From Patescibacteria group bacterium (GTDB lineage: Bacteria; Patescibacteriota; Patescibacteriia; UBA2591; UBA4787): a stretch of DNA of 64,000 bases. A model generated the notes under the pieces. The model did not search any database and was not told the origin of the DNA. It was given only the letters and a program-made list of their open reading frames with translations. The stretch lies in the NCBI GenBank assembly GCA_028715115.1, contig JAQUSN010000001.1:191067-255066 (forward strand). The letters run 5' to 3'. Each line of letters starts with the position of its first letter. Within the stretch, counting starts at the first letter, position 1. The position numbers were made by a program, and so were the translations under genes. Below are positions 7,376 to 55,285 of this stretch, piece by piece.

Positions 7376-9193
7376 ATGAAAATATTATTGAAAAATTTTC
7401 TTATCTTTTTGATAATTTTTTTAATATTAGCTGGCGTTTTGAGTTTATTGGGATCGTCTGGCGCTAAAACCGAACAAATTTCTGTTAGCCAGTTGGTGAC
7501 CGAGGTTTCTACCGGCCAAGTAAAAACCATTGCTTTAACCGGCAACCGCCTAGACGTTGTTTTGAATAATGGCCAACGTCAATTAGCCTACAAAGGAGAT
7601 GGCGACTTTATCGCGCTCTTAAAAAATTACGGAGTCGATCAAAATAAATTAAATTCTTTTGAGTTCCAGGTAAAAAACAGTTCTGGTCAGAGCATTTGGG
7701 CCACTACGATTTTGCCGATCGGTATACCGCTTATTTTTATAATCGGTTTTTTTGTTTTTCTACAACGGCAAATGCGCGGCGCCGGCAACCAAGCTTTTAA
7801 GTTTGGCGAAAGCCAGGCCAGAGAAATAGGTCCGCTGGATAAAAAAACTAAAATCACCTTTAAGGATGTAGCCGGAGTAAGCGAGGCTAAGTCAGAATTA
7901 GGCGAAATTATTGAATTCTTAAAAAATCCCCGAAAATTCATTAATTTAGGAGCAAAAATTCCTAAGGGCGTACTTTTGGTCGGCGGTCCGGGCACGGGCA
8001 AAACCCTATTAGCTCGAGCTGTGGCTGGAGAAGCTAATGTGCCATTTTTCCATATATCCGGATCTGAATTTGTGGAAATGTTTGTCGGTGTCGGCGCTAG
8101 CCGAGTGCGCGATTTATTCCGCCGAGCTAAAAAAAATCTGCCTTGTATTATTTTTATCGACGAAATCGACGCTGTTGGCCGCCAACGCGGCGCCGGATTG
8201 GGCGGCTCACATGATGAACGAGAACAAACTTTAAACCAAATTTTAGTAGAGCTCGACGGTTTTGAACCCAACATTGGATTAGTGGTGATGGCCGCTACTA
8301 ATCGACCTGATATTTTAGATCCGGCACTACTGCGGCCCGGCCGTTTTGATCGTAAGGTTATTTTAGATATGCCGAGCATTAAAGACCGCGAAGAAATTTT
8401 AAAAATTCATAGCCAAAATAAACCCTTGGCATCGACTGTAAATCTAAAAAAAGTAGCTGAACGTACTCCTGGTTTTTCTGGCGCTGATTTATCAAATTTA
8501 ATGAACGAGGCGGCCATTTTAACCGCCCGGCGCAATAAAAACAAAATCGGCCAATTAGAAATTTTAGAAAGCATTGAAAAGGTTTTGCTCGGCCCAGAAC
8601 GTCGTAGTCGCGTTTTTAGTGAAAAAGAGCGCGAGATTAGCGCTTATCATGAAGCAGGACACGCTTTAGTGGCTCATGAACTGCCTGGTTGCGATAAAGT
8701 CCAAAAAGTTTCCATCATTTCTCGCGGCCAAGCCGGCGGTTATACTTTAATTACGCCCGAAGAAGACAAATATTTAAAAAATAAAAATGAATTTTTAGAC
8801 AACGTAGCCGGACTTTTAGGTGGATTTGTAGCCGAAGAAGAAACTTTTAAACAAACCACTACTGGTTCGAGCAGTGACCTCAAAAAAGCCACCGACCTAA
8901 TTAAAAGAATGGTTACCCAATTTGGCATGAGTGATCTTTTGGGCCCTCGAACTTTTGGCGAAAAAGAAGAACTAATTTTTCTGGGTCGCGAAATCAGCGA
9001 ACAACGTGATTATTCAGAAAAAACAGCTCAATTAATTGACGAGGAAGTGTCTAAATTAATAACTTTATGCTATAATAAAGCCAAGGAAATCGTTAAAAAC
9101 AAAAAGGCTTATTTAGAAAAAATAGCTAAATTGCTTTTAGAAAAAGAAACTTTGGAAAAAAATGAGTTTGAAAAAATATTTACTACTCCTTAA
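7376..9193 (+). CDS. ftsH: ATP-dependent zinc metalloprotease FtsH
   Basis: N-terminal TM segments, Walker A GPPGTGKT, SRH region, and zinc-binding HEAGHAL motif. The track start at 7370 is a TTG; the ATG at 7376 is more likely. Confidence 0.93.
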
Positions 9194-9200
9194 TTAGTTT

Positions 9201-10100
9201 ATGTTAAAATCTCTTATTAAAACCTCCTGGCAAATTGTTTGGCAAAATCCTATTTTGTGGATTTTTGGCTTTTTTAGTACGATTTTAACCGGCAATGAAA
9301 TTAGTTTTGTTGTCAATAATTTTCAAAATTTTTCCAATAGCTTTAATAATAACTCTGTTTTAACCCAAATCACTGGCTTTAATTTTTCATCAACCCCGCT
9401 TCGTTGGTGGGGCCTTTTGTTAATTATTATTTTCTTTTTGATTTTACTATTTCTGGTGGTCTGGTCGCAGGTTGGATTAATTTTGGGCGCTAAACAGCAG
9501 ACTAGCGGCGCTAGGCCTAATTTTAAAGAAATCATGAAACGAATTGGCCACTATTTCCTGCCTTCTTTTTTGATTAATTTTGCCGCTTTAATTATTGTTT
9601 ACGTGGTTTTTGCTGTTATTAGAGTTTCTTTGGTTAGCCTCGTTTATTCTAATCATTTAATTTGGCCTGTTCTTTATTTTTTTATTAATTTAATTTTATT
9701 TATACCTATTTCTTTAATTGTTTATTTTCTTGCTCGCTTTGCTGTGATTAATTTAGTTCTAACCGACGATCCTTTTATGGCCAGCCTTAAAAAGTCTTGG
9801 AAATTTTTATTTAAAAGCTGGTTAACAGTTCTTATTTTGGTTGTTGTTTGGGGTTTAATTGGTTTTGTTTTTGGCTTAATCTTGTTTGTTTTATCATCAA
9901 CCACAGCTGCTCCGTTTGTTATTTTGGTCGCCCTAACTTCTTTGTTAAAATTTAATATGAGTTTTCCACTGGTTTTAGGCATTATATTATTTTTAATTGG
10001 GATTATTTTTGTTTTTTTGGAAGCTTTGTTTTTCTCTTGGCAAAACACGTCTTGGATCCTGTTTTATTTGGGGAAAAAGAGTGAGCAAAAAACTTCCTAA
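9201..10100 (+). CDS. Polytopic membrane protein of unknown function
   Basis: 299-aa highly hydrophobic ORF with many predicted TM helices, AT-rich native composition, immediately after ftsH. Confidence 0.5.
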   Translation: MLKSLIKTSWQIVWQNPILWIFGFFSTILTGNEISFVVNNFQNFSNSFNNNSVLTQITGFNFSSTPLRWWGLLLIIIFFLILLFLVVWSQVGLILGAKQQTSGARPNFKEIMKRIGHYFLPSFLINFAALIIVYVVFAVIRVSLVSLVYSNHLIWPVLYFFINLILFIPISLIVYFLARFAVINLVLTDDPFMASLKKSWKFLFKSWLTVLILVVVWGLIGFVFGLILFVLSSTTAAPFVILVALTSLLKFNMSFPLVLGIILFLIGIIFVFLEALFFSWQNTSWILFYLGKKSEQKTS

Positions 10101-11995: not shown

Positions 11996-13036
11996 TTATC
12001 CTCCCTGTCGATCCTTGCGCAACGCCAGGGCCAGCTTCGCGATACACTCAACGGCCTCTTCGCTTAGCGTGCCCGGATTACCGACCTGTTCCAGTTCTTC
12101 GCGTAGATCGGCGATGACGAGCTGGCGCACGGCCGGGCCTTCTGTTTCGGCTACGTGCACTTCTGCAGCGCGCGCTGTCTCTCTTCGTGCCTGGACCGAC
12201 GATGCTCCTCTCTTGCCTCCGCGATTCTTAGTCGAAACGCCGGCAAGATGACCCCGCCCTCCACCATTACTGCGCCATTCTTTCTCTGGTAGGAGGCTTT
12301 GGTCAACATCCACCAGTAACGAATCTGTAACGACGCCGAGTGCTGAGGCCATGCGCTGAATGGTCTCTATTGACGGCAGGGTGCCCGACTTCTTGAAGCT
12401 GACCCAGGCTGACTGAGGCCGGGCGGCATCGGGAGATATCGCCCTACCTATTACCAGGAGAGTGATCCCTTTTTCTGTCTTGGCCTCTTCGACGTTTCGG
12501 AGAAGCGCCTTCTTTGATTTCGCCTCTCCTTCTTGCGGTTTACGGGGCATAGAGCCCTTCCTTTCGATTGATACCCTTCTTGCCTTGGTGGTCTTTGCTC
12601 TTGTGTTCGGCCTTGTGTTGGCCGCCTTCACTGTTACTGTTTGTGGGTCAGGCGGATCAGCGGCGGTAGCCGTTGGCTTTGGGTTGGTTGCATCATCTTC
12701 TTGGGCTGGCGTAGTCTTTTTGGGGTCGTGCCCATTGTGCATTATAGCGCTCGGACTAATGCCCAAGCGCTGGCAACAGGCGAGAATCTGGTTGCTGGTT
12801 AATAGGTTCCAGGCAGTATCTCTGAGCCAGCTGTGCCAGACTTCAATCGGCCTGTCAGTCCTGGGGCTAACGATAAGTCCCATGGCCGCTTCGCCATACA
12901 TTCGCCGTTCAGCGGCGTCCAAAGCGATGGCTTCTCTCTCTACTCGCGCTGCTTCAAGCCTTCTGGCCACTAGCAGTTTTTGCGCTGTTCCGTCGTGGTT
13001 ATGATGGCCCGCCGCTTCTATTGGGGCCACACTCAT
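11996..13036 (-). CDS. GC-rich islet A: 346-aa protein with a central XRE/Cro-type helix-turn-helix segment
   Basis: Clean ORF at about 58% GC in a 35% GC backbone. The segment ...SAWVSFKKSGTLPSIETIQRMASALGVVTDSLL fits the XRE HTH pattern. It has a strong SD (AAAGGAGGTGTT-ATG) and a TTGACA promoter at 13092-13120. The function of the N- and C-terminal domains is unknown. Confidence 0.6.
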   Translation of the reverse strand: MSVAPIEAAGHHNHDGTAQKLLVARRLEAARVEREAIALDAAERRMYGEAAMGLIVSPRTDRPIEVWHSWLRDTAWNLLTSNQILACCQRLGISPSAIMHNGHDPKKTTPAQEDDATNPKPTATAADPPDPQTVTVKAANTRPNTRAKTTKARRVSIERKGSMPRKPQEGEAKSKKALLRNVEEAKTEKGITLLVIGRAISPDAARPQSAWVSFKKSGTLPSIETIQRMASALGVVTDSLLVDVDQSLLPEKEWRSNGGGRGHLAGVSTKNRGGKRGASSVQARRETARAAEVHVAETEGPAVRQLVIADLREELEQVGNPGTLSEEAVECIAKLALALRKDRQGG

Positions 13037-13875: not shown

Positions 13876-13923
13876 ATTTTTATTTAAATCAATTTTTAAG
13901 ATTTTGTCAAGAAGTTTTTATAA

Positions 13924-18576: not shown

Positions 18577-19236
18577 ATGACTTTTCGACAGTTTGTTTGT
18601 CGGGCTTCACAGATGACCACAGCGGAGAGGGGCGTCTACTTTCTTTCGCTAAGAGCTGATCTTTTCTGGGATGTTGAGCTGAGCCCAGCCCAACGCGCTG
18701 AAACCCTGCTTTGGTTAGAGAGCCATAGATACGGGTTTGTTCGGGGTCAACCGAGGGTCTTAACTCGAGTTCCTTCCCGGGAACAATCGGAGAAGAGGTG
18801 GCGACGAGAGCGACGCCGGCTGATTATGGCCAGTAGGCCGTATTATCGGTTTTGTTGTCCGTTTTGCCGGACCAAAATCATCGTGCGGCATGAACTTTGT
18901 GCTGGCGACCGGGTCAGATGTCGGAGTTGCGGCGAAGAATCGCAATATCTACATTCTGGCATCCGGCCTGGCACGGTCTTCGGCTCACTGGTTTTTACTG
19001 ATGACGGATCTTTCCGTTGTCCGGTTTGCGCCGAGTTGACGCCAAGCCAGCGCGACAAAAAACACAAAGAGGCAATCGTCTGTAGCTTCTGTAAGTCAGA
19101 GTTCACTAAACACGTGGATTCCCCTGAAGTGGCCAACGGACGAGATCCTCACGGCGTGATCTTTGTGCTTGCCGGCCCGATATTTCATCACCTTCTCGTG
19201 ATGCAAACTCCGCCCGCCCTGTCGGTTCAGCAATGA
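18577..19236 (+). CDS. GC-rich islet B: Cys-rich protein with four CxxC pairs (two predicted zinc ribbons)
   Basis: CPFC...CRSC...CPVC...CSFC motifs at about 56% GC. GGAGG lies 5 nt before the ATG at 18577; the track start at 18565 (the ATG inside ATGGAGG) is unlikely. No recognisable family. Confidence 0.55.
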   Translation: MTFRQFVCRASQMTTAERGVYFLSLRADLFWDVELSPAQRAETLLWLESHRYGFVRGQPRVLTRVPSREQSEKRWRRERRRLIMASRPYYRFCCPFCRTKIIVRHELCAGDRVRCRSCGEESQYLHSGIRPGTVFGSLVFTDDGSFRCPVCAELTPSQRDKKHKEAIVCSFCKSEFTKHVDSPEVANGRDPHGVIFVLAGPIFHHLLVMQTPPALSVQQ

Positions 19237-23690: not shown

Positions 23691-24266
23691 CTAGGAGACT
23701 TCTGCTTTCTCGGTTTGCCTGAGACCGAGAACCAGCGCCCAGACACCCAGGACGGGCAGGTAGACCCTAGCTATCCAGTCGAAGACGGCTGTGGCGTTCT
23801 CTATTTTGCCAATGGTATCTGTGAGCTTGGACAGCCAGAGCATCAGGATGATCACGCATAGGCCGACGGTCAGGATCAGTCCGAGAGCCTTCTTTTCGCC
23901 CAGGTAGAAACGGACGGCGACGAAGAAGATGGCGACGATCATGGCCGGTTCGATCCAGATGAGCGAAGCGGTGAGCTCGGATGATGGGTAGAGCATGAGG
24001 CCCAGGCCCAGGTAGAACCAGAAAGCGCAGAACATGCCGATCAGGATGCTGGCCGGCGTGTCTTTGGCCTTGAACACGGTGTAGCCGAGTCCCGCCAGAT
24101 GAAACAGGCCGCCGAACAGGATCAGTGACAGTCCGGTCGGGCCGTTCGGCATCATGCCGAATTTGCCCAGGATCGGTTGCCACTTGATGCCGGAGTAGAG
24201 CGCGCAGAGCAGGAAAATGCTCAACAGCACGAATCCGACTGACGAGAACCTCTTTTTGTCATCCAT
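23691..24266 (-). CDS. GC-rich islet C: polytopic membrane protein (about 6 TM), unknown function
   Basis: 191 aa at about 56% GC with GGAGGcaaaATG. The promoter is TTGACA-16-TAAAAT at 24332-24359 on the minus strand. Confidence 0.55.
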   Translation of the reverse strand: MDDKKRFSSVGFVLLSIFLLCALYSGIKWQPILGKFGMMPNGPTGLSLILFGGLFHLAGLGYTVFKAKDTPASILIGMFCAFWFYLGLGLMLYPSSELTASLIWIEPAMIVAIFFVAVRFYLGEKKALGLILTVGLCVIILMLWLSKLTDTIGKIENATAVFDWIARVYLPVLGVWALVLGLRQTEKAEVS

Positions 24267-28730: not shown

Positions 28731-28758
28731 TTGACAACTATATTTAACGTTTTATAAT
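28731..28758 (+). promoter_or_regulatory. Promoter of the GC-rich element D (TTGACA-16-TATAAT)
   Basis: ttgacaactatatttaacgtttTATAAT. The predicted TSS is about 28766. Confidence 0.6.
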
Positions 28759-28765
28759 TTTAAAT

Positions 28766-29092
28766 ATAAACAACCCATGGAGGTGTCATATAGGCGCGAA
28801 AAGAGACTGCAGTATTTCCGTGGTAGTACCTCCGGACAAGGGACGTCTAAGTATAGACTCGAGACGTTCAAAACCATGTTGTTCTGCCATGGAGGCAGAG
28901 CTGAGACTTTTGCGGCCTCTTCGACAGGGCGCGGTATTGCGTCGTCCCGGCCACAACAATCTAATACCTGGTCGGCCTTGTCCCCACTGCGGAGCACTGA
29001 TTCAACTCCTCATGGAGTAAGTCCTGGGGCGGAGCCGTTTTGGCTCCGCCCTCTGTCATTACCAAGAACACAGAATTGACTTTCTGTCTTTT
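28766..29092 (+). other. GC-rich about 325-nt transcription unit D. Either a small-protein gene with an unresolved start (ORF-track candidates 28777..29079 or 28820..29020) or a structured ncRNA
   Basis: About 52% GC flanked by AT-rich DNA. A consensus promoter lies upstream. An internal GC hairpin sits at 29022-29047 and a terminator (acagaa-ttgact-ttctgt plus T7) at 29063-29092. Three overlapping ORFs with low-complexity translations. The ATGGAGG at 28777 has no canonical start 5-9 nt downstream. Confidence 0.35.
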
Positions 29093-29224
29093 TTTGTTAA
29101 AATAGTTTTAATAAAGACCTACCCGCCTATTGCCTATCCAGGAGTTAATTTTAAATAAGAATTGAAGAAAGAATATTTTTTAATTCTTAACTCGATGGGG
29201 CGGCGTTGGCAGGCGGGCCTGCTC

Positions 29225-29455
29225 GCCATTACTACGCTCAGTGGTAGAGCTCTTATATCGACAATTTTATTAATAGGCGTGCATAGCTCAGCGGCCTAAT
29301 CCAATTCTCTAAGAACTGGACGGCCCGTTCGAGTTTTTTTAAAACTCGAATTAGGGTAGAGCACGACTCTTATATCAATAAATTTTCAATATTTAGTGTC
29401 TTGAGTGCGCGTGTAGCTCAGTGGTAGAGCACCACTCTTATAGCGGTAGATTCCT
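29225..29455 (+). repeat. Three truncated or interrupted tRNA-Ile(UAU)-derived 5'-half copies (pseudo-tRNA fragments)
   Basis: 29232-29262 ctacGCTCAGTGGTAGAGCtCTTATAtcgac. 29276-29376 GGCGTGCATAGCTCAG[63-nt insert]GGTAGAGCACGACTCTTATATC. 29406-29449 GCGCGTGTAGCTCAGTGGTAGAGCACCACTCTTATAGcgg. All share the D-arm and anticodon-arm core of the intact tRNA at 29470. Confidence 0.6.
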
Positions 29456-29469
29456 ATTATTCTCTAAGT

Positions 29470-29541
29470 GGGCGCATAGCTCAGTGGTAGAGCACCACTC
29501 TTATAAAGTGGGGGTCGATGGTTCGAACCCATCTGCGCCCA
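29470..29541 (+). tRNA. tRNA-Ile (anticodon UAU, AUA-decoding type)
   Basis: GGGCGCA-TA-GCTCAGTGGTAGAGC-A-CCACT-CTTATAA-AGTGG-GGGTC-GATGGTTCGAACCCATC-TGCGCCC-A. The anticodon loop CUUAUAA carries U34-A35-U36. The acceptor stem is extended by flanking complementary ctctaagtg / cacttagag. Confidence 0.8.
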
Positions 29542-29618
29542 CTTAGAGAATAAAATAATGTTATCTACCGATATATAGGTCGCAACTTTATAAATTATTT
29601 TAATTGTAGCGACCAATA

Positions 29619-33545: not shown

Positions 33546-33803
33546 CTACGTGTGAAGACCGATTGCCTTCTTCTTGAATCGACTTGGCGGCACAAGTTCG
33601 CAGGCCCCGAGGATAACGAACCCGGTCACGATGGCCCCGAAAAAGGCCTTGAGCAAGCGGATTACGACCAGGGCTGTTGTCTGATAGGCGACTGGTGATT
33701 GCCCGAGAAGGGGCACCTTTTTGATGAACATGGCCGAGACCAGCCAGCCAAGCAGTAAGGCTATCGTCAGCACGATTAGCCAGTAGAAAATCAGTCTCTT
33801 CAT
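33546..33803 (-). CDS. GC-rich islet E: small membrane protein (2-3 TM)
   Basis: 85 aa. ATGGAGGatgagATG places the SD 5 nt before the ATG at 33803 (the track start at 33815 is unlikely). A TTGACA promoter lies at about 33850-33880 on the minus strand. Confidence 0.5.
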   Translation of the reverse strand: MKRLIFYWLIVLTIALLLGWLVSAMFIKKVPLLGQSPVAYQTTALVVIRLLKAFFGAIVTGFVILGACELVPPSRFKKKAIGLHT

Positions 33804-42612: not shown

Positions 42613-42988
42613 AACTCAAACTGAGGTAACTGAAACCAAAGAATCAAATACTTCAAAAGAAGTCAAAGTTTCTTTACCGGAAATTAAGGTTGGTTCATTG
42701 GTAAAAGTTCACCAAAAAATTAAAGAATTAGACGCCAAGGGAAATCCCAAAGAGCGTGTGCAGATTTTTGAGGGCATTGTGATAGCTCATCATGCCGGCA
42801 AAGAAAAAGGCGCTACTTTTACTGTGCGTAAAATAGCCGCTGACGCTGTTGGTGTTGAAAAGATTTACCCGCTCCACTCACCGACATTAGTGAAAGTAGA
42901 ATTGGTTAAACAGCACAAGGTTCGCCGCGCGAAACTTTACTACTTGCGCTCACAGAAAAAGCATAAAAAAATGAAAGAGATAAAATAA
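42596..42988 (+). CDS. rplS: 50S ribosomal protein L19 (with N-terminal extension)
   Basis: RVQIFEGIVIA...FTVRKI..GVGVEKIYPLHSP....VE.V....VRRAKLYYLR. Confidence 0.85.
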   Translation: MTEENKTQTEVTETKESNTSKEVKVSLPEIKVGSLVKVHQKIKELDAKGNPKERVQIFEGIVIAHHAGKEKGATFTVRKIAADAVGVEKIYPLHSPTLVKVELVKQHKVRRAKLYYLRSQKKHKKMKEIK

Positions 42989-42993
42989 ACACT

Positions 42994-43077
42994 TGCGGAC
43001 GTGGCGGAACGGTATACGCGCATGCTTGAGGTGCATGTGGGAGCAATCCCGTGAGAGTTCAAATCTCTCCGTCCGCA
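42994..43077 (+). tRNA. tRNA-Leu (anticodon GAG)
   Basis: GCGGACG TGGCGGAACGGTATACGCG CATGC-TTGAGGT-GCATG, long variable arm, then GAGTTCAAATCTCTC CGTCCGC-A. Confidence 0.8.
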
Positions 43078-43086
43078 TAAATATAG

Positions 43087-43161
43087 GGGCCCGTAGCTCA
43101 GCGGTAGAGCACTTCCATGGCATGGAAGGGGTCAGGGGTTCAAGTCCCCTCGGGTCCACCA
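43087..43161 (+). tRNA. tRNA-Ala (anticodon GGC)
   Basis: GGGCCCG-TA-GCTCAGCGGTAGAGC-A-CTTCC-ATGGCAT-GGAAG...CGGGTCC-A-CCA. The G3:U70 pair is present. A terminator hairpin lies at 43177-43205. Confidence 0.85.
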
Positions 43162-47219: not shown

Positions 47220-47269
47220 GAGTAAATTACCTTTAAATAAAAAACGAGAGCAATCTCGTTTTTTGTATC

Positions 47270-47297
47270 TTGACAAAAGCTAAAAATATGCTAAATT
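47270..47297 (+). promoter_or_regulatory. Promoter of islet gene J1 (TTGACA-16-TAAATT with TGn extension)
   Basis: ttgacaaaagctaaaaatatgcTAAATT. Confidence 0.55.
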
Positions 47298-47343
47298 ATA
47301 GAATAATCCCAATTTCGTCACTTTGAAAGGAGGTGATATTTCA

Positions 47344-47694
47344 ATGAATGACAGAGTAAATCCGAAGATTAAGCAGTTCCTTCAGAGGTACTTCGGTGGG
47401 ACCGACCTGGCCTCGATCATGACATTCCTGGATAAGGGCTTCAGTCTCAACGGCCAGGTAGTCGTTTCCACCATCTTCGTCTCTGCCCAAGAGTGCAGAG
47501 TCCCCGTGACTCGTGTTTTGGCAGAATGCGAGAAAGAGTGGGACAGGAACTGGAACTTCCAACACCCAGAACTCAGAGGAAACCCCGATGCTCCCGGTGG
47601 CGCTGGTATGCAGAACAGGGCTTCCCTCGAAAAGATCTATACCGCTCTCGGTATACCAAGTCCGAGAGAAGGGCGGGCCAGGAAAAGGGTCTGA
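47344..47694 (+). CDS. GC-rich islet J1: 116-aa soluble protein of unknown function
   Basis: AAAGGAGGTGA SD 7 nt before the ATG at 47344; the track start at 47323 is a TTG inside the SD region. About 53% GC. A terminator (tcggggctgcc-gtag-gcagccccga plus U-run) follows at 47722-47755. Confidence 0.55.
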   Translation: MNDRVNPKIKQFLQRYFGGTDLASIMTFLDKGFSLNGQVVVSTIFVSAQECRVPVTRVLAECEKEWDRNWNFQHPELRGNPDAPGGAGMQNRASLEKIYTALGIPSPREGRARKRV

Positions 47695-47848
47695 GCCCGA
47701 GACTCGCTGTTTCGCAAATCGTCGGGGCTGCCGTAGGCAGCCCCGACTTCTTTATTTAATGAAAGGGCCCAGCTTATTCAGCTAGGGCCCTTCTCTTATA
47801 TGCACGATGTGCATGATACCTCCCCTTGATTGTTAGTGGAGCGCGTTG

Positions 47849-48484
47849 TTATCGAAGCTCCACGGAAGCCACTCTGACTGCGGCGATGAGCAGCCACAGC
47901 ATGAACCACCCTATCTCTTTAAGCAGTCGTTGATTCATCCGAAGATAGAGCGTTCTTAACCACTGCTTGTGCTCCATGCCAACAAACCCAACCGGTTTGG
48001 TGACCAAGAAGCGTTTTTCTTTGCCCATCATTCCAAACAGCACGAACGTCTCGCGACGGAAGGGGCTGAGCCACGAGATTCCGATGTTGAACTCTTTGCC
48101 CTGCTGATCGTACTCACCAAGGCTGTCTTTTCCGAAGTGGAGTAGAGACCCCGCTGCGAACGTTAATGGCCAAATCAATGGCCAGCGCAACAGCAAGGCC
48201 AGTGCAAACCAGACGGTGAGGGCAATGCCGAAATAGAAGGGTTGGTGCAGTATGGTCCGATGATGACCGCGTGAATTGCCCCTTATTTTGGCATCGACGA
48301 CCTTCAGTACGATGTCGAGATCCGGCAGCAACGCAAAGAGAATCGCTGCCGAATAGATCCATGGCCAGTGCTGTCGGAAATAGTGGTCATCGATTGTACC
48401 AAGAGCAGTGCCAATCATCAGACCGCTGCCGATGTCGGCAGTAGCAGCCAGAACGTCACCGAATAAGAGTTTAATTCTGTCCAA
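47849..48484 (-). CDS. GC-rich islet J2: YdjM/DUF457-like membrane-bound metal-dependent hydrolase
   Basis: LLPDLDIVLK...RGHHRTILHQPF aligns with YdjM LLPDIDHPKS...HRGFTHSLL. Multiple TM segments; about 57% GC. Confidence 0.45.
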   Translation of the reverse strand: MDRIKLLFGDVLAATADIGSGLMIGTALGTIDDHYFRQHWPWIYSAAILFALLPDLDIVLKVVDAKIRGNSRGHHRTILHQPFYFGIALTVWFALALLLRWPLIWPLTFAAGSLLHFGKDSLGEYDQQGKEFNIGISWLSPFRRETFVLFGMMGKEKRFLVTKPVGFVGMEHKQWLRTLYLRMNQRLLKEIGWFMLWLLIAAVRVASVELR

Positions 48485-48584
48485 TTTCTCCCGCCTTTCT
48501 GTTTACCATTCGGTCTTCAATCAGTGTTATATCATATAATTTCACATTTTTGCCTTTTTGTCAAGATTATATAATTTTTTGTAA

Positions 48585-48617
48585 AAAGAATAGCGGGTGA
48601 GTATAGGAGCTCACCCG
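48585..48617 (-). terminator. Terminator of islet gene J3
   Basis: agcgggtgag-tataggag-ctcacccgct plus a U-run on the minus strand. Confidence 0.6.
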
Positions 48618-49003
48618 CTCAGAGACAAACTTCGATTGGATTGGACCTTCTCTTGCCAGTATCCCATCAACGAGAGAGCGTAGCCGAAGGCTACATAGCC
48701 AGCGACCAGCACGACGAGCATCACTGGCGAGAAAATGAGTTTCGGCCAGAGATATAGCGCGGCAAATCCGCTCAGAAGTATTCCTGACAGTATGACACCC
48801 GCGGCGAAAGAACCCTTACCCCTTCTCACCGACCCTAGCATAAGGCCGGTGACCATAATGAAGTGTGGAAGGAAACGGGCTATCATCTCTGCGTTGAAAT
48901 TGTGCCGAAGCGTGCCGCTGTTTATCACGGCATAGCCTCCCAGCAACCATGCCGCAACATAAGCAGCCATCAGGAAGGCACATCGGAGTACGTGTCGTAT
49001 CAT
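48611..49003 (-). CDS. GC-rich islet J3: 130-aa four-TM membrane protein
   Basis: About 58% GC. Promoter module cTTGACAaaaggtcaaaaatat at 49040-49075 on the minus strand. Confidence 0.5.
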   Translation of the reverse strand: MIRHVLRCAFLMAAYVAAWLLGGYAVINSGTLRHNFNAEMIARFLPHFIMVTGLMLGSVRRGKGSFAAGVILSGILLSGFAALYLWPKLIFSPVMLVVLVAGYVAFGYALSLMGYWQEKVQSNRSLSLSG

Positions 49004-49124
49004 GCAATCCTCCAGTTTTTAGATCTTAACCATTATTCTATATTTTTGACCTTTTGTCAAGATCATATTTTTAATTATTTTTCTTGCTATTAAAATTTTA
49101 ATATCGTTCTATATAGCCTAAGAT

Positions 49125-49163
49125 TAAAAACAAAGAGGACCTTGATCGAAGATCAAGGTCCGT
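49125..49163 (-). terminator. Terminator of islet gene J4
   Basis: Perfect ggaccttgatc-gaa-gatcaaggtcc hairpin plus a U-run on the minus strand. Confidence 0.65.
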
Positions 49164-49206
49164 CTCGCATGTTCACGTTGCCTCCTTTCTAGGCGTTTGC
49201 CTAGTC

Positions 49207-49407
49207 TTACGACTGCGCTGATTCCTTCTGTTTCTTTTCTTTGCCCGCTTCGACGGCATCCGATATGATCGCCACAATAGCGGAGCAGGAGAGGAGAACC
49301 ATCGTCATCACGAGCATTCGTTGAACGAATGTCGGGAAAGAGATGATCGTGATGATCGCCGCCCCGACAAACCACAGTCTGCCGAACAGATAGAGAGGGT
49401 TATGCAT
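49207..49407 (-). CDS. GC-rich islet J4: 66-aa two-TM membrane peptide
   Basis: GGAGatattATG. Promoter cTTGACAaaaaggcaaaaatatgcTAAGAT at about 49430-49465 on the minus strand. Confidence 0.5.
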   Translation of the reverse strand: MHNPLYLFGRLWFVGAAIITIISFPTFVQRMLVMTMVLLSCSAIVAIISDAVEAGKEKKQKESAQS

Positions 49408-49551
49408 AATATCTCCTTAGTTGTATTAATATCTTAGCATATTTTTGCCTTTTTGTCAATCCTTATTTTTTTAGAAAGTGAGGGGGGTTAAGATAAGATT
49501 TTTTGTAAATTTAATGGAGCGGACTTGCAGTCCGCTCCACTTGGTAGGCAG

Positions 49552-49746
49552 TCATTCCTCCTCGATCCAGACCTGGGTATCGGCCCTGGCGACGCCTATC
49601 GTGAGGTGTCCCAGATTGCCCTGCTCGTCAACTGATGTTGCTGATCCGGATTCCCCTTTCAGGAAGCGTACCTGCTTTCCTTCCCACTCCATCCAGAAGA
49701 ACCTTCCTGCTGGCACAGAGTCCCAATAAGTCTGTCGTTTATTCAT
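49552..49746 (-). CDS. GC-rich islet J5: 64-aa soluble protein
   Basis: aaaGGAGtgctcATG start at 49746 (the track start is a GTG at 49752). Terminator hairpin at 49513-49539. Promoter TTGACA-17-AATAAT at about 49765-49795 on the minus strand. Confidence 0.45.
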   Translation of the reverse strand: MNKRQTYWDSVPAGRFFWMEWEGKQVRFLKGESGSATSVDEQGNLGHLTIGVARADTQVWIEEE

Positions 49747-49835
49747 GAGCACTCCTTTGTCTTTATTATTTCATATTTTTTTGAATTTGTCAATGGTTAT
49801 AATTTTATAATTTATAAGCAAAAGCGGCATTTTTT

Positions 49836-50044
49836 GTAAATAAAGCGGGGGCGGAGAGCCCGCCCCCTTGGGTTCAAACGTGATCTTGGCCGGACGACTT
49901 CTTCTAGGCCGTATTCACGCTTGACGCCCTGAACCGATTTACCATGTATCCTCCATTGGCCTCGAAGAGGCCACTTTGGTACTGGATGGCCCTTGAGCCC
50001 GCAATTGGACAGATCGTCCTTAATTGAAGGGCTCATCAACCATC
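49836..50044 (-). ncRNA. Candidate GC-rich small RNA J6 (about 210 nt), possibly dual-function with a 13-codon ORF
   Basis: Promoter TTGACG-16-TATAAT on the minus strand at 50051-50078. Terminator gggggcgg-agagc-ccgccccc plus U-run at 49847-49867. Internal hairpin GGCCUC-UU-GAGGCC. It contains an SD-ATG (AUGGAGGauacAUG) opening MVNRFRASSVNTA-stop. The track ORF 49812..50039 overlaps the terminator and looks spurious. Confidence 0.35.
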
Positions 50045-50128
50045 AGCTTTATTATAATATCACATTCAGTTTCGTCAACATCTTAGCTTGCAATAAAGTA
50101 ATGTTTTGTTAAAATATAAATTAATTAT

Positions 50129-50674
50129 ATGTCTAAAAAAATTATTTTACTCGTTGCTTTAGAAGAAGAATTCCCCAAAAAATTAGTTCCTAAGGGAGTT
50201 AACGTTTATTATACTCATTGCGGCAAGGTTAATGTAGCCATTGCGGCAACAAGGGCATTAAGCAAGATAAAAAGCAAAAATGTTTTAGTCGTTAATTATG
50301 GCACGGCCGGCTCGGCCAAACATAAAATAGGCGCACTCTTAAAGGTGACGCAATTCAGACAGGCGGATATTGATGCCAGTGGCCTTGGTTTTCCTAAAGG
50401 AGTGACGCCGCTCGATAAAAAGTTTTTTAAATTTAATACGGAAAAAATTAATTTTGGTCCTGGCGAGACTTGTTATACGGCCGATAATTTGCAAAATTTT
50501 CCGTTAGAAGATATGGAGTCATACTCGATTGCCAAAGTTTGTAAAATCTACGGCTTGAAATTTGTCAGCTATAAATTTATTACTAATAATTTTAATAAAA
50601 ATGCGGCTGCTGATTGGAAAAATAACGTTAAGAAAGGAGCTAAAATATTTTTAGATAAACTTTTAAAGTTATAA
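50129..50674 (+). CDS. Purine nucleoside phosphorylase family protein (MTA/SAH nucleosidase-like)
   Basis: 181 aa, PNP_UDP_1-like pattern (VNYGTAGS... central Gly-rich loop, C-terminal ...YESYSIAKVC). Native AT-rich composition; terminator at 50699-50730. Confidence 0.5.
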   Translation: MSKKIILLVALEEEFPKKLVPKGVNVYYTHCGKVNVAIAATRALSKIKSKNVLVVNYGTAGSAKHKIGALLKVTQFRQADIDASGLGFPKGVTPLDKKFFKFNTEKINFGPGETCYTADNLQNFPLEDMESYSIAKVCKIYGLKFVSYKFITNNFNKNAAADWKNNVKKGAKIFLDKLLKL

Positions 50675-50777
50675 TTATAAAAATACGATATTTAAAATTG
50701 AAAAGACGAGTTTTAAGCCCGTCTTTTTGATTAAGAAAAACGCTGACCCGAGAGAGCCAGCGTCGAGGCTGAGTCCG

Positions 50778-50936
50778 CTATGATTGTGTCATTATCGGCT
50801 TGTAGGCGTCGTGGATTTTGGAGCACGCCCAGTCGGTGAGAGAACTTGGCGTATAGAATACTCCATTGTCCTGGACGACCCGAATCATTGGCTTTTCATA
50901 GGGCTTCCTCTTCCTGAGTGGCAATGTACGTGACAT
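50778..50936 (-). CDS. GC-rich islet I1: 52-aa small protein (below the ORF-track size cutoff)
   Basis: Strong SD gAAAGGAGGcggcaATG. The ORF reads MSRTLPLRKRKPYEKPMIRVVQDNGVFYTPSSLTDWACSKIHDAYKPIMTQS. Promoter TTGACA-16-TAAAAT (-35 at 50995-51000, minus strand). Confidence 0.45.
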   Translation of the reverse strand: MSRTLPLRKRKPYEKPMIRVVQDNGVFYTPSSLTDWACSKIHDAYKPIMTQS

Positions 50937-51075
50937 TGCCGCCTCCTTTCCGAGGGATTAAACCTCATTATTATTTTAAAATTAATTTTATTTTTGTCAA
51001 CTCCACAAAATTTTAAAAAGTAAAAGGCTGTTGTTGATATTATCTCCAACAGCCCGTAGCACGAGCAGCTCGTCA

Positions 51076-51345
51076 TTAGTCTATGCCCGCCTCAGGGCCT
51101 CGCCAGGCCTTAGATATCTTCCTTCGCCGAATCCGACTTCGATCTTTCTTTTGCCTTTGCTGATGGTCGTCACGAGCAGGCGGTGTCCTCGACACTTTGG
51201 GTTAGCCACGGCTCTCATCAGGTATGTGCCGGGAGCAAGCCGACGACTCTTCCCTCATGAAGATCTTCCGGCTGAAAAGTCGAGCACGTCCAGGCACTGG
51301 CTGATTGTTAAGACGAATCTGTCTGGCTTCATGAAGCCTCCTTAT
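51076..51345 (-). pseudogene. GC-rich islet I2: ORF interrupted by an in-frame TGA after codon 25 (possible pseudogene, readthrough or recoding)
   Basis: AAGGAGGcttcATG (51343-51345). MKPDRFVLTISQCLDVLDFSAGRSS-TGA-GKSRRLAPGTYLMRAVANPKCRGHRLLVTTISKGKRKIEVGFGEGRYLRPGEALRRA in one frame. Terminator hairpin ggctgttg...caacagcc at 51026-51054. Confidence 0.3.
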
Positions 51346-51445
51346 GTTTTATTTTATTCTTATTTCCAAAAATGAAAAGGGCCTCAAATAAAATTATATC
51401 GGGCGGGAGCTGTGTGCTCCCGCCCGAAAGTTGTAGACTAGCTCA

Positions 51446-51754
51446 TCAGTACCAGGTGGGCCCTGGACGGAAGGCGATCTGTTCTATCCGCTGCTGTCGT
51501 TTTATTCTTTCGACTTCAGCGGCAGCGGCTACTCGCCGATTGGCACGCCATCTCCTCTTCCTGGCGGTTCTCAGAGTGTTCAGGCCCTTGTCTGCGGCCT
51601 TGGACCTTGAGTGTCTTCCTCCGGCGGGCCGTAACATGGTCACGACCTTGTCTTCTCTCGCCCCACACGTCGAACATGCGTTCGGCAACGATCCTTTGCC
51701 TGAGAAGGTCTTGGTGGTGCCGCAGTTTGTGCAGCGCTGAGTGTATCTTGCCAT
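51446..51754 (-). CDS. GC-rich islet I3: 102-aa basic zinc-ribbon protein (CxxC...CxxC)
   Basis: MARYTQRCTNCGTTKTF...ACSTCGARE, then an Arg/Lys-rich tail. AGGAGtactgATG. Promoter TTGACA-17-GATAAT at 51819-51847 on the minus strand. Terminator cgggcgggagc-tgtgt-gctcccgcccg at 51400-51426. Confidence 0.55.
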   Translation of the reverse strand: MARYTQRCTNCGTTKTFSGKGSLPNACSTCGAREDKVVTMLRPAGGRHSRSKAADKGLNTLRTARKRRWRANRRVAAAAEVERIKRQQRIEQIAFRPGPTWY

Positions 51755-51892
51755 CAGTACTCCTGTTTAGGTAATAGAATTCGAGAAATACGACCAGCCC
51801 CTCCATACAGATATAGTTATTATCTCAAAATTTTATCATTTTGTCAAGGCGGTATTTTTGACTTTTTTTTCCACCGGATTAAAATAAAAAGC

Positions 51893-53017: not shown

Positions 53018-53069
53018 GGGGCTTGACATTTTTCAAAATAAAGTAATAATATATCTGATTGGAGGTAAT

Positions 53070-53423
53070 GTGAATACATCTCGATTCAGAAAGCTGTTGG
53101 TTGGGGTCTGCGATAAGCTCGACCTACTGCCTCACGAATATCCGGACGTTGACGTGAGTTGTTGCCGCGGTCAAATTTCGGTACAGCTTACGGTGACGGA
53201 GCCGGACGACCGTTATCCAGGAGATGAGTTGGTGGTGCTTGACCCTGCTCGGCGAGCCGACGCTCCTGCTTACAGATTCTTTCGCGGTCACGGCGGCGAG
53301 GTACTCGGCTCGTTTATAAGAGCGGTGAGAGCGGCAACTCCGGGTGGCGTTCGAGTCCAGATTAAGGCGCGCTATGCGCGGCTGGGGGTCAGCTTAACCC
53401 GAAGATGCGTCGTTCAGTCCTGA
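53070..53423 (+). CDS. GC-rich islet F: 117-aa protein of unknown function (GTG start)
   Basis: About 62% GC. Promoter TTGACA-17-AATAAT at 53024-53052. GGAGG-taat-GTG. Terminator gaggcgaac-aaccg-gttcgcct plus U-run at 53444-53475. Confidence 0.45.
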   Translation: MNTSRFRKLLVGVCDKLDLLPHEYPDVDVSCCRGQISVQLTVTEPDDRYPGDELVVLDPARRADAPAYRFFRGHGGEVLGSFIRAVRAATPGGVRVQIKARYARLGVSLTRRCVVQS

Positions 53424-53499
53424 TCCAACAGAAGATCGAACGAAGAGGCGAACAACCGGTTCGCCTTTTCTTTTTCTATAAAAATGCTAAAATAGACTC

Positions 53500-54813: not shown

Positions 54814-55020
54814 CTATGCAGCACTCAGCCTTTCGCGCAGTTCGTCGGCTTTGGATTTGAACCACTTCGACCCTGTTAGCCAGGCCAGTGCCGCCAGGAT
54901 TGCCCACCAGAGGTATGCGGCGATGACTACGACCAGGCTGAGAACCATGACCATGAGGAATACTACAAGGAACGATGACCATGGCGTTGTTCGCTGCTGT
55001 GTGCGATAGGTTGTTGTCAT
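54814..55020 (-). CDS. GC-rich islet G: 68-aa single/double-TM membrane peptide
   Basis: ATGGAGGctacATG start at 55020. Promoter TTGACA-16-TATAAT at 55049-55076 on the minus strand. Terminator about 54760-54800. Confidence 0.5.
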   Translation of the reverse strand: MTTTYRTQQRTTPWSSFLVVFLMVMVLSLVVVIAAYLWWAILAALAWLTGSKWFKSKADELRERLSAA

Positions 55021-55183
55021 GTAGCCTCCATTACTTTACATTTTTATAATTATACATTTTTAAGCCTTATTGTCAAGATTGTCTTATCCGCCAGCTGGCG
55101 GACTATAGGGTGGCTGAGTGCCTGTCCGCCAACCGGCGGAGTCGAAGCTGTTTTATAACAAAATGAAGTGACCTTACTAGGGC

Positions 55184-55270
55184 GGAGGGGTGCTAGAGTG
55201 GACGAATAGGTCGGTCTCGAAAACCGATATACCTGCAAAGGTATCGCGAGTTCGAATCTCGCCCCCTCCG
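55184..55270 (+). tRNA. tRNA-Ser (anticodon CGA)
   Basis: GGAGGGG-TG-CTAGAGTGGACGAATAG-G-TCGGT-CTCGAAA-ACCGA, long variable arm TATACCTGCAAAGGTATC, then GCGAGTTCGAATCTCGC CCCCTCC-G. Confidence 0.85.
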
Positions 55271-55285
55271 TTTTGGTAGGGTTTT

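Follow-up and report, generated by a model that had tools for sequence, protein, structure and literature searches.

Why does a short region of a chromosome with 40% GC hold gene after gene that is richer in GC than its neighbors and is led by a Shine-Dalgarno (SD) sequence of a kind that those neighbors rarely have? The question is raised by positions 47.27 to 51.85 kb of a 64-kb stretch of chromosome (the window) from a member of the Patescibacteria, the ultra-small bacteria also known as the Candidate Phyla Radiation (CPR). The native genes of the window have a GC content of 0.32-0.45, whereas the region consists of blocks of GC 0.50-0.60 with short AT-rich spacers between them, and contains nine GC-rich single-gene units (J1 to J6 and I1 to I3) together with one native nucleosidase gene. 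An earlier note on this DNA had described the region as an archipelago of small, separately transcribed genes and RNAs. Here we ask what sets these units apart, where they recur, and how they may have come to be there.

Results

A distinct class of GC-rich genes led by SD sequences

Composition was compared between curated sets of 13 GC-rich genes and 45 native genes of the window. An SD sequence precedes 13 of 13 GC-rich genes vs. 1 of 45 native genes (Fisher p=4e-12); in the GC-rich open reading frames (ORFs) it is AAGGAGG-like and lies 5-9 nt before the start codon, whereas the upstream regions of native genes are AT-rich. The GC content at third codon positions (GC3) ranges from 0.53 to 0.80 in the GC-rich set and from 0.28 to 0.46 in the native set, so that the two ranges are disjoint, and the GC content of whole genes is 0.49-0.58 in the units vs. 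0.32-0.45 in their surroundings, with first and second codon positions (GC1 and GC2) likewise raised. GC3 exceeds GC2 in all 13 GC-rich ORFs and exceeds GC1 in all except A1, B1, and K1. The encoded proteins differ as well, with the residues G, A, R, and P (GARP) making up 0.28 of the GC-rich set and 0.21 of the native set, F, Y, M, I, N, and K (FYMINK) 0.23 and 0.33, and K/(K+R) standing at 0.43 and 0.67, respectively; 6 of the 13 GC-rich genes encode membrane proteins, as judged by hydropathy. The units thus form a distinct gene class, with at least 13 genes in the 64-kb window, that stands apart in base, codon, and amino acid composition and in SD use. The presence of an SD in every GC-rich gene and the recurrence of the class, both across the window and in other CPR genomes, go beyond what the earlier note had described.

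The units of the region and the native gene among them are listed below (aa, amino acids; CDS, coding sequence; TM, transmembrane segments; UTR, untranslated region).

47270..47747, plus strand: J1 unit; promoter TTGACA-16-TAAATT at 47270-47297, SD AAGGAGG at 47327-47333, CDS 47344-47694 (116 aa), terminator 47721-47747
47763..48564, minus strand: J2 unit; promoter 48564-48536, SD GGGAG, TTG-start CDS 48484-47849 (211 aa), hairpin 47763-47792
48592..49060, minus strand: J3 unit; promoter 49060-49032, SD GGAGG, CDS 49003-48611 (130 aa, ~4 TM), terminator 48592-48619
49137..49459, minus strand: J4 unit; promoter 49459-49431, SD AAGGAG, CDS 49407-49207 (66 aa, 2 TM, lysine-rich tail), conserved 3'UTR block, terminator 49137-49161
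49513..49793, minus strand: J5 unit; promoter 49793-49765, SD AAGGAG, CDS 49746-49552 (64 aa, soluble), hairpin 49513-49541 with no clean T-run
49840..50078, minus strand: J6 unit; promoter TTGACG-16-TATAAT at 50078-50051, ~206-nt transcript 50044-49840, GGAGG-N5-ATG and a 13-codon ORF, terminator 49847-49867
50129..50674, plus strand: native nucleosidase-like gene; 181 aa, GC 0.35, no SD
50739..51000, minus strand: I1 unit; promoter 51000-50973, SD AAGGAGG, CDS 50936-50778 (52 aa), terminator 50739-50764
51025..51378, minus strand: I2 unit; weak -35 only (TTTTCA, 51378), SD AAGGAGG, ORF 51332-51081 with an in-frame TGA at 51257-51255, hairpin 51025-51055
51399..51847, minus strand: I3 unit; promoter 51847-51819, SD CAGGAG, CDS 51754-51446 (102 aa, CxxC...CxxC and an arginine-rich tail), terminator 51399-51427

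Promoters were scored by their match, out of 12, to TTGACA-N16-18-TATAAT. The positions and ORF sizes given in the earlier note (116, 211, 130, 66, 64, 52, and 102 aa) are borne out by the ORF list and by the promoter and terminator scan, and hydropathy agrees with its picture of small membrane peptides lying next to small soluble proteins. Its statement that each unit has its own promoter and terminator holds for most of them: a promoter of at least 10/12 is found in eight of the nine units and a hairpin at the end of all nine, but I2 has no good promoter and the J5 hairpin lacks a T-run. Nearly all sites scoring this high lie directly 5' of a unit. Promoter-like sites number 26 vs. 9.9 +/- 3.0 in shuffled sequences and terminator-like sites 18 vs. 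9.7 +/- 3.6, and the hairpins of the units reach -16 to -28 kcal/mol, compared with about -13 for the two native terminators of the region. The nucleosidase gene is the sole core gene within the region, and the housekeeping genes nearby include those for an M23 peptidase, FtsW, and Wzy. An exact 12-mer, TTTACAAAAAAT, occurs four times in the window, three of them (48574-48585, 49498-49509, and 49829-49840, minus strand) immediately after the terminator hairpins of J3, J5, and J6, and may be part of a terminator tail or a junction motif.

The end that the earlier note had set at 51850 does not hold, as more units of the same kind are found on both sides of the region.

53023..53470, plus strand: K1 unit; promoter 53023-53050, SD GGAGG, GTG-start CDS 53070-53423 (117 aa, GC 0.57), terminator 53442-53470, between native FtsW and Wzy_C
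54814..55076, minus strand: K2 unit; promoter 55076-55049, SD GGAGG, CDS 55020-54814 (68-aa TM peptide)
11996-13036, minus strand: GC-rich SD-led gene; 346 aa, weak helix-turn-helix-like match
18577-19236, plus strand: GC-rich SD-led gene; 219 aa, multiple CxxC motifs
23691-24266, minus strand: GC-rich SD-led gene; 191 aa, ~6 TM, GC3 0.80
33546-33803, minus strand: GC-rich SD-led gene; 85 aa, 2 TM

Profile searches, including PHROGs, gave no family above threshold for the last four proteins. A further GC-rich promoter-to-terminator unit lies at 28731-29060 on the plus strand, where TTGACA-16-TATAAT is followed by CCATGGAGGTG, ~300 nt of GC 0.52, and a hairpin at 29027-29053; it has no clear start codon, and its comparison with Rfam gave nothing but chance-level matches. 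Close by, at 29181-29460 on the plus strand, two to three degenerate tRNA-like fragments (e.g., GTGGTAGAGCTCTTATATCGA and GGGTAGAGCACGACTCTTATATCAA) lie just 5' of a tRNA-Ile(TAT) gene (29470-29542), and look like decayed tandem copies of it; the UAU anticodon of this tRNA is uncommon. Among the native genes, many across the window start a few nucleotides after a -10-like element or a pure A/T leader, as at 13910 on the minus strand (TTGACA...TTTAAATAAAAATATG), which suggests that leaderless or SD-independent initiation may be the default in this organism.

The promoters follow a consensus of the organism

As the earlier note had reported, three promoters of the region share a near-identical 22-nt module: when up to three mismatches are allowed, the 22-mer ATCTTGACAAAAAGGCAAAAAT is matched at three places (48546-67, 49042-63, and 49441-62), where none is expected. 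When all TTGACA sites of the window are listed, however, an extended consensus emerges, cTTGACAAA(A)-N5-AAAAAT-N3-TAnAAT, which also stands 5' of native tRNA and protein genes (24404 and 56557 on the plus strand, 13910 and 6044 on the minus strand) and of other GC-rich units (18523 and 53023 on the plus strand; 13120, 24359, 33859, and 55076 on the minus strand). The 22-nt module is an extreme case of this genome-wide extended promoter consensus of the organism. In addition, the J4 homolog in an unrelated metagenome contig of the European Nucleotide Archive (L113) has the same promoter and leader, so this promoter moves or is inherited with its gene and was not copied locally. The duplication of promoter cassettes that the earlier note had drawn from the module is therefore not upheld. 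A repeat search found only promoter-consensus matches, with no insertion sequence (IS)-like, miniature inverted-repeat transposable element, integron, or cassette border repeats. In another unrelated CPR-like contig (L110), four small genes beside a J1 homolog have an identical or near-identical 20-nt leader, AGTTCTTTGGAGGTGAAATA (8623-8642, 9373-9392, 9826-9845, and 13876-13895), and leader/SD modules appear to have been copied within that genome.

Relatives of the units in other CPR-like contigs

Homologs were sought with phmmer, run exhaustively with the concatenated mini-proteins as query against 1.84e9 representative sequences, and metagenome and genome contigs carrying them were fetched (loci such as L112 and L113). 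When the units were compared with Pfam, NCBIfam, PHROGs, and PADLOC, the matches were limited to YdjM for J2 and weak zinc-ribbon signals for I3; the view that no known family can be assigned thus stands for most units. J2 matches PF04307 with E=1.3e-11 (44.8 bits vs. a cutoff of 29, profile positions 9-165 of 176) and by this match is a predicted YdjM-like, membrane-bound, metal-dependent hydrolase. Its homologs, which carry PF04307 too, fall into four clusters at 43-67% identity, and the one in a contig of GC 0.34 (L112), in an S6/SSB/S18/EF-P context, starts with TTG behind an AAGGAGG leader and a TTGACA promoter of its own, and its GC3 is 0.49 vs. 0.20-0.28 for the core genes. J3, J4, J5, and I1 each have a single homolog, with E values of the order of 1e-6 to 1e-15: P0068 for J3 (35% identity, E=8.6e-10), P0042 for J4 (58% identity), P0099 for J5 (37% identity, E=4.6e-6), and P0067 for I1 (51% identity, E=1.7e-10). 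In L114, the J3 homolog adjoins an IS110 transposase and is equipped with a separate TTGACA promoter, an SD, and a AAAGGAGG leader. The J4 unit aligns with L113 over its full extent, from promoter and leader through CDS and 3'UTR to terminator, at ~70% nucleotide identity. The I1 homolog in L115 has no SD and a host-like GC3. For I3, the search returned no homolog, there being only weak zinc-ribbon profile matches, and for K1 it returned only the self-match. It is clear from these contigs that relatives of J1, J2, J3, and J4 in other CPR-like contexts share the promoter/SD architecture.

Two further observations concern these homologs. A 24-nt block in the 3'UTR of J4 (49165-49206, minus strand) and of its counterpart in L113 (307-360), GGCAAACGCC(T)AGAAAGGAGGCAA, is perfectly conserved, above the conservation of the CDS, and is followed in both by a 7-codon mini-ORF (VNMRDGP and MRTTRSP) that enters the terminator stem; the block may be a translation-coupled 3' element. 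The JGI metagenome 3300075153 contains homologs of J2 (60%), I1 (51%), and J5 (37%) on separate short contigs, and a related organism probably lives in the sample from which it came; in this metagenome, a 50-aa ORF with no counterpart in the window follows the I1 homolog and overlaps it.

The nucleosidase gene at 50129-50674 matches PNP_UDP_1 (PF01048, E=7e-12, 45.7 bits vs. 25.1), whereas the NCBIfam nucleosidase equivalogs all fall below their cutoffs (best 68.7 vs. 129). The gene thus belongs to the PNP_UDP_1 superfamily, with no equivalog-level match as a methylthioadenosine/S-adenosylhomocysteine nucleosidase.

GC-rich CPR relatives use SD sequences in 0-0.36 of their genes, as low as in AT-rich CPR, compared with 0.42-0.60 in Firmicutes controls, and at this low frequency they were rejected as the obvious SD-using donors.

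The J1 family

J1, a 116-aa all-helical protein, has by far the most relatives, with ~95 representative clusters in the phmmer search and 52 clusters in another search. The family is unannotated and occurs almost only in CPR-like contexts, the few named sources being Patescibacteria, Staskawiczbacteria, and one single-amplified genome of Atribacteria. AlphaFold2 models of the window protein, a short form, and of a long form (P0013) have a predicted local distance difference test (pLDDT) score of 94.7 and 94.3, respectively, and predict a domain of five to six helices to which the long form adds a six-stranded beta domain; compared with the PDB, the models gave no match past generic helical repeats.

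A strong SD precedes the J1 homolog in all 17 metagenome loci and in both of the loci examined on long contigs, whereas the housekeeping genes around it in CPR-like contigs have none. The homologs are richer in GC than the rest of their contigs in the metagenome loci. In a comparison of 17 loci, their GC3 lies above the host median in 16 (mean excess +0.09, Wilcoxon p=1e-4), with an excess that runs from about 0 to +0.26 across loci and has the window copy as its extreme. Such a graded excess is what would be expected from repeated transfers of differing age followed by amelioration. Homologs whose GC3 has reached the level of the host (L100, L101, L109, L116, and L118) keep their SD, which argues that the SD is functional in those hosts. 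Other small SD-led orphan genes cluster by the J1 homolog in L093, L095, and L110, and J1 homologs adjoin restriction-modification genes or tyrosine recombinases; in Candidatus Staskawiczbacteria (L118 10001-12990 / L119 7596-10585), the homolog abuts two tyrosine-recombinase (Phage_integrase) genes among housekeeping genes.

Assembly, coding capacity, and possible toxin-antitoxin function

The DNA of the region has been assembled several times over. The J2 and nucleosidase proteins have exact matches in the NCBI metagenome-assembled genome (MAG) GCA_028686935.1 and in the Logan assemblies of SRR22315506-09, and four MAGs of one Patescibacteria species (labeled by NCBI as 'Patescibacteria group bacterium') carry the unit proteins. 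Had assembly joined reads from a GC-rich organism to a CPR scaffold, a break such as that of GCA_028686935.1 within J4, where contigs end at 49423 and 49288 with a 136-nt overlap, might be a trace of it. The four Logan single-run assemblies and the NCBI MAG contigs agree with the window at 99.95-100% identity over the junctions, however, with the four Logan contigs and larger MAG contigs (up to 479 kb) crossing all of them at 100% identity; each junction falls precisely between a terminator and a promoter; and like architecture is found in unrelated samples (L112, L113, and L114). As the same DNA stands in four MAGs and four independent read-set assemblies, a chimera is almost inconceivable. 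Three clustered single-nucleotide polymorphisms lie at 49290-49297 in J4 and three further ones at 42742-42757, and J4 is the only unit with amino acid variation among the four MAGs, in four variants (F24I; L38P+S40A; I44L). J6 was found much as the earlier note had it, as a promoter-to-terminator RNA of ~206 nt with a 13-codon ORF; its minimum free energy is -90.4 kcal/mol (z=-5.1 vs. shuffles), it has no codon-position GC pattern, no match in Rfam, and no homolog in the fetched loci, and we infer that it is a structured small RNA or a gene remnant. The I2 ORF is indeed interrupted, by a single in-frame TGA (51257-51255), and is probably a pseudogene, a decaying copy; an alternative genetic code was rejected, as native and other cassette ORFs read normally in table 11 and a pseudogene is simpler. 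GC-rich islands in AT-rich genomes are often structured RNAs, and the folding of J6, the stop in I2, and the lack of protein homologs for I3, K1, and I2 would all fit a reading in which some or all of the islands are non-coding and their ORFs accidental. Against this, in all units but J6 an SD lies 5-9 nt ahead of a start codon and the ORF takes up the room as far as the terminator, third codon positions carry the GC pattern given above, six units have protein-level homologs, and Rfam gave nothing at the gathering threshold and only chance-level matches at E<=1, so we regard this reading as very improbable.

The earlier note had also compared the units to type I toxin-antitoxin or stress-peptide loci, in which J4, and possibly J3 and K2, would be toxins held by small RNAs such as J6 or by antisense transcripts. 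Like Hok/Sok, TisB/IstR, Ldr, Ibs, and Fst, the units include separately transcribed small hydrophobic peptides with a structured small RNA nearby: J4, with 66 aa, 2 TM, and a charged tail, and K2, with 68 aa, look like membrane-active peptides of slightly more than the usual length of type I toxins (under 60 aa), J6 is strongly structured from promoter to terminator, and J4 alone is polymorphic at the amino acid level. No toxin or antitoxin family was matched in Pfam, NCBIfam, or PADLOC; no convincing antisense promoter/terminator pair lies over J3 or J4, where opposite-strand candidates score only 9/12, which is background level; and the repeat search revealed no inverted repeat linking J6 to J3, J4, or J5 and reported no complementarity with their mRNAs. 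J3 (130 aa) and J2 (211 aa), like most of the products, are too large for type I toxins, and a constitutive-looking consensus promoter with a strong SD, showing no sign of the translational repression of Hok/Sok-type systems, would be lethal for an unrestrained toxin. A toxin-antitoxin function is accordingly improbable, if less firmly so for J4 and K2, and no test supported it.

Discussion

The results favor, with modest confidence, a reading of the region as moron-like accessory cassettes on a cellular chromosome that were acquired horizontally from a CPR gene pool. On this account, the region would consist of self-contained expression cassettes of one gene each, stacked head to tail to the left and right of the native nucleosidase gene and each made up of a host-type sigma-70 promoter, a short AT-rich leader with an AAGGAGG SD, a GC-rich ORF, and a GC-rich intrinsic terminator. 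The cassettes would have been transferred horizontally one by one, out of a GC-richer gene pool shared mainly among CPR, and would be transcribed independently and translated via SD/anti-SD pairing, whereas the core genes would initiate on unstructured AT-rich leaders without an SD. Their products would act mostly at the cell envelope, with J2, J3, and J4 and, in other parts of the window, K2, C1, and D1 predicted to be membrane proteins and J1, J5, I1, and I3 soluble. The main rival, which we consider unlikely but the most serious of the alternatives, is that the units are vertically inherited, lineage-specific genes whose high GC, strong SD, and strong hairpins are kept by selection on expression, e.g., for stable and efficient single-gene mRNAs. 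It is kept alive by promoters that follow the host consensus and by one other sample that contains homologs of J2, I1, and J5, and it draws further support from the conservation of the J4 promoter and leader along with a ~70% nucleotide-identical homolog, from J1 homologs that keep their SD where GC3 equals that of the host (L100, L101, L109, L116, and L118), and from the lack of mobility genes nearby. Yet native ribosomal protein genes are not GC-rich, with a GC3 of 0.36 for the L19 gene (42596-42988), which indicates that high expression alone does not raise GC here; amino acid composition is shifted as well as synonymous sites, which speaks for long exposure to another mutational bias; J1 homologs exceed their hosts in GC3 by anything from 0 to +0.26, which is not a constant, selected offset; and most units have no homolog or one among the 1.84e9 representatives.

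Several results weigh against horizontal acquisition. The nearest GTDB genomes in an FtsW-anchored scan are at ~50% FtsW identity and share no nucleosidase/M23/Wzy neighborhood with the window, and all four MAGs of the species carry the units, so that insertion is only inferred. No integrase or transposase ORF was found in 43-56 kb, nor were terminal or direct repeats, and the nearest tRNA genes (42994-43161 and 55183-55271) are not adjacent to the region. No donor was found, every recovered homolog lying in a CPR-like context, and PHROGs, IMG/VR scans (J1 family, J2, A1, and I3), and a tblastn search of J1 and J2 against 50,697 phage records gave no phage homologs. The homologs of J2, I1, and J5 that occur together in JGI 3300075153 could equally reflect vertical inheritance at the level of a genus, and host-type promoters fit long residence as well as transfer within CPR. 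Finally, the anti-SD motif is reported to be absent from about half of Parcubacteria 16S sequences (PMC9297842), and no 16S rRNA gene is present in the window or in any fetched locus. A phage origin was rejected on the negative phage searches, and a search for defense systems with PADLOC yielded nothing beyond weak matches of zinc-ribbon type for I3 and B1.

The likeness of the accessory cassettes to phage morons rests on architecture. A moron, in the definition of Hendrix and Juhala as summarized in PMC2920897, is one ORF that brings along a promoter and a factor-independent terminator of its own and deviates in composition, and, as with the units described here, morons are wedged between unrelated genes, gather in hotspots with several different units, and often encode hypothetical or membrane proteins. 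The units differ in that they are set among the housekeeping genes of a cellular chromosome (M23 peptidase, nucleosidase, FtsW, and Wzy), with no phage or prophage genes around them and no phage homologs, and in that they are GC-richer than their host. In Patescibacteria, genomic islands and genes transferred individually have been reported by the hundreds, with exchange taking place mostly among Patescibacteria themselves (PMC12455944), and the units resemble these as atypical accessory DNA whose homologs lie almost entirely in CPR-like contexts. They differ from those islands in lacking an integrase, an adjacent tRNA gene, and direct repeats, and in that genes appear to be gained singly, each with its full expression signals; that paper does not mention an SD contrast with core genes, and the word 'promoter' occurs 0 times in its text. 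Of the classical marks of a genomic island, the region has atypical composition, and a mobility gene, a tRNA target, and direct repeats are missing. Integron cassette arrays are similar as tandem, same-strand arrays of unrelated small orphan genes with hairpins between them, but no IntI, attI, or attC-type sites and no tyrosine recombinase are present in this part of the window, the hairpins between units are GC-rich terminators without shared sequence, and integron cassettes usually lack promoters, which the units carry (weakly in I2). SD-poor bacteria, such as Bacteroidetes and the Parcubacteria without an anti-SD (PMC9297842), have core genes with comparable AT-rich, SD-less leaders; what differs here is a minority class of accessory, GC-rich genes with perfect SD sites.

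As an islet of horizontally acquired orphan genes, the locus would be of a fairly ordinary kind. The cassette architecture together with the all-or-none SD contrast, recurring in other CPR genomes, was not found described in the literature searched. A bolder and rather unlikely extension is that CPR operate two initiation regimes, with an SD-less core set against a mobile, CPR-wide pool of SD-dependent cassettes, the chromosomal counterpart of phage morons. Under two such regimes, the expression of the cassettes could be switched as a block, e.g., by exposing or masking the anti-SD, and if the lineage has no anti-SD, the cassettes might instead be designed to be expressed elsewhere, e.g., in the host cell of the episymbiont; the J1 family and the 206-nt structured J6 RNA would then be new components.

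If the favored reading of the region as acquired accessory cassettes is true, streamlined CPR genomes gain genes cassette by cassette, ready to express, at hotspots between housekeeping genes. A canonical SD in an otherwise SD-less genome, whether or not GC is raised, would then mark the accessory or mobile fraction of CPR genomes, a fraction that is mostly 'hypothetical' and hard to separate by homology. The findings also raise the question of whether SD/anti-SD pairing still works in Parcubacteria-like lineages, in which the anti-SD is often reported missing. The J1 family, unannotated and predicted to be well folded, is a candidate for follow-up, and the small membrane proteins of the cassettes are plausible cell-surface or host-interaction factors.

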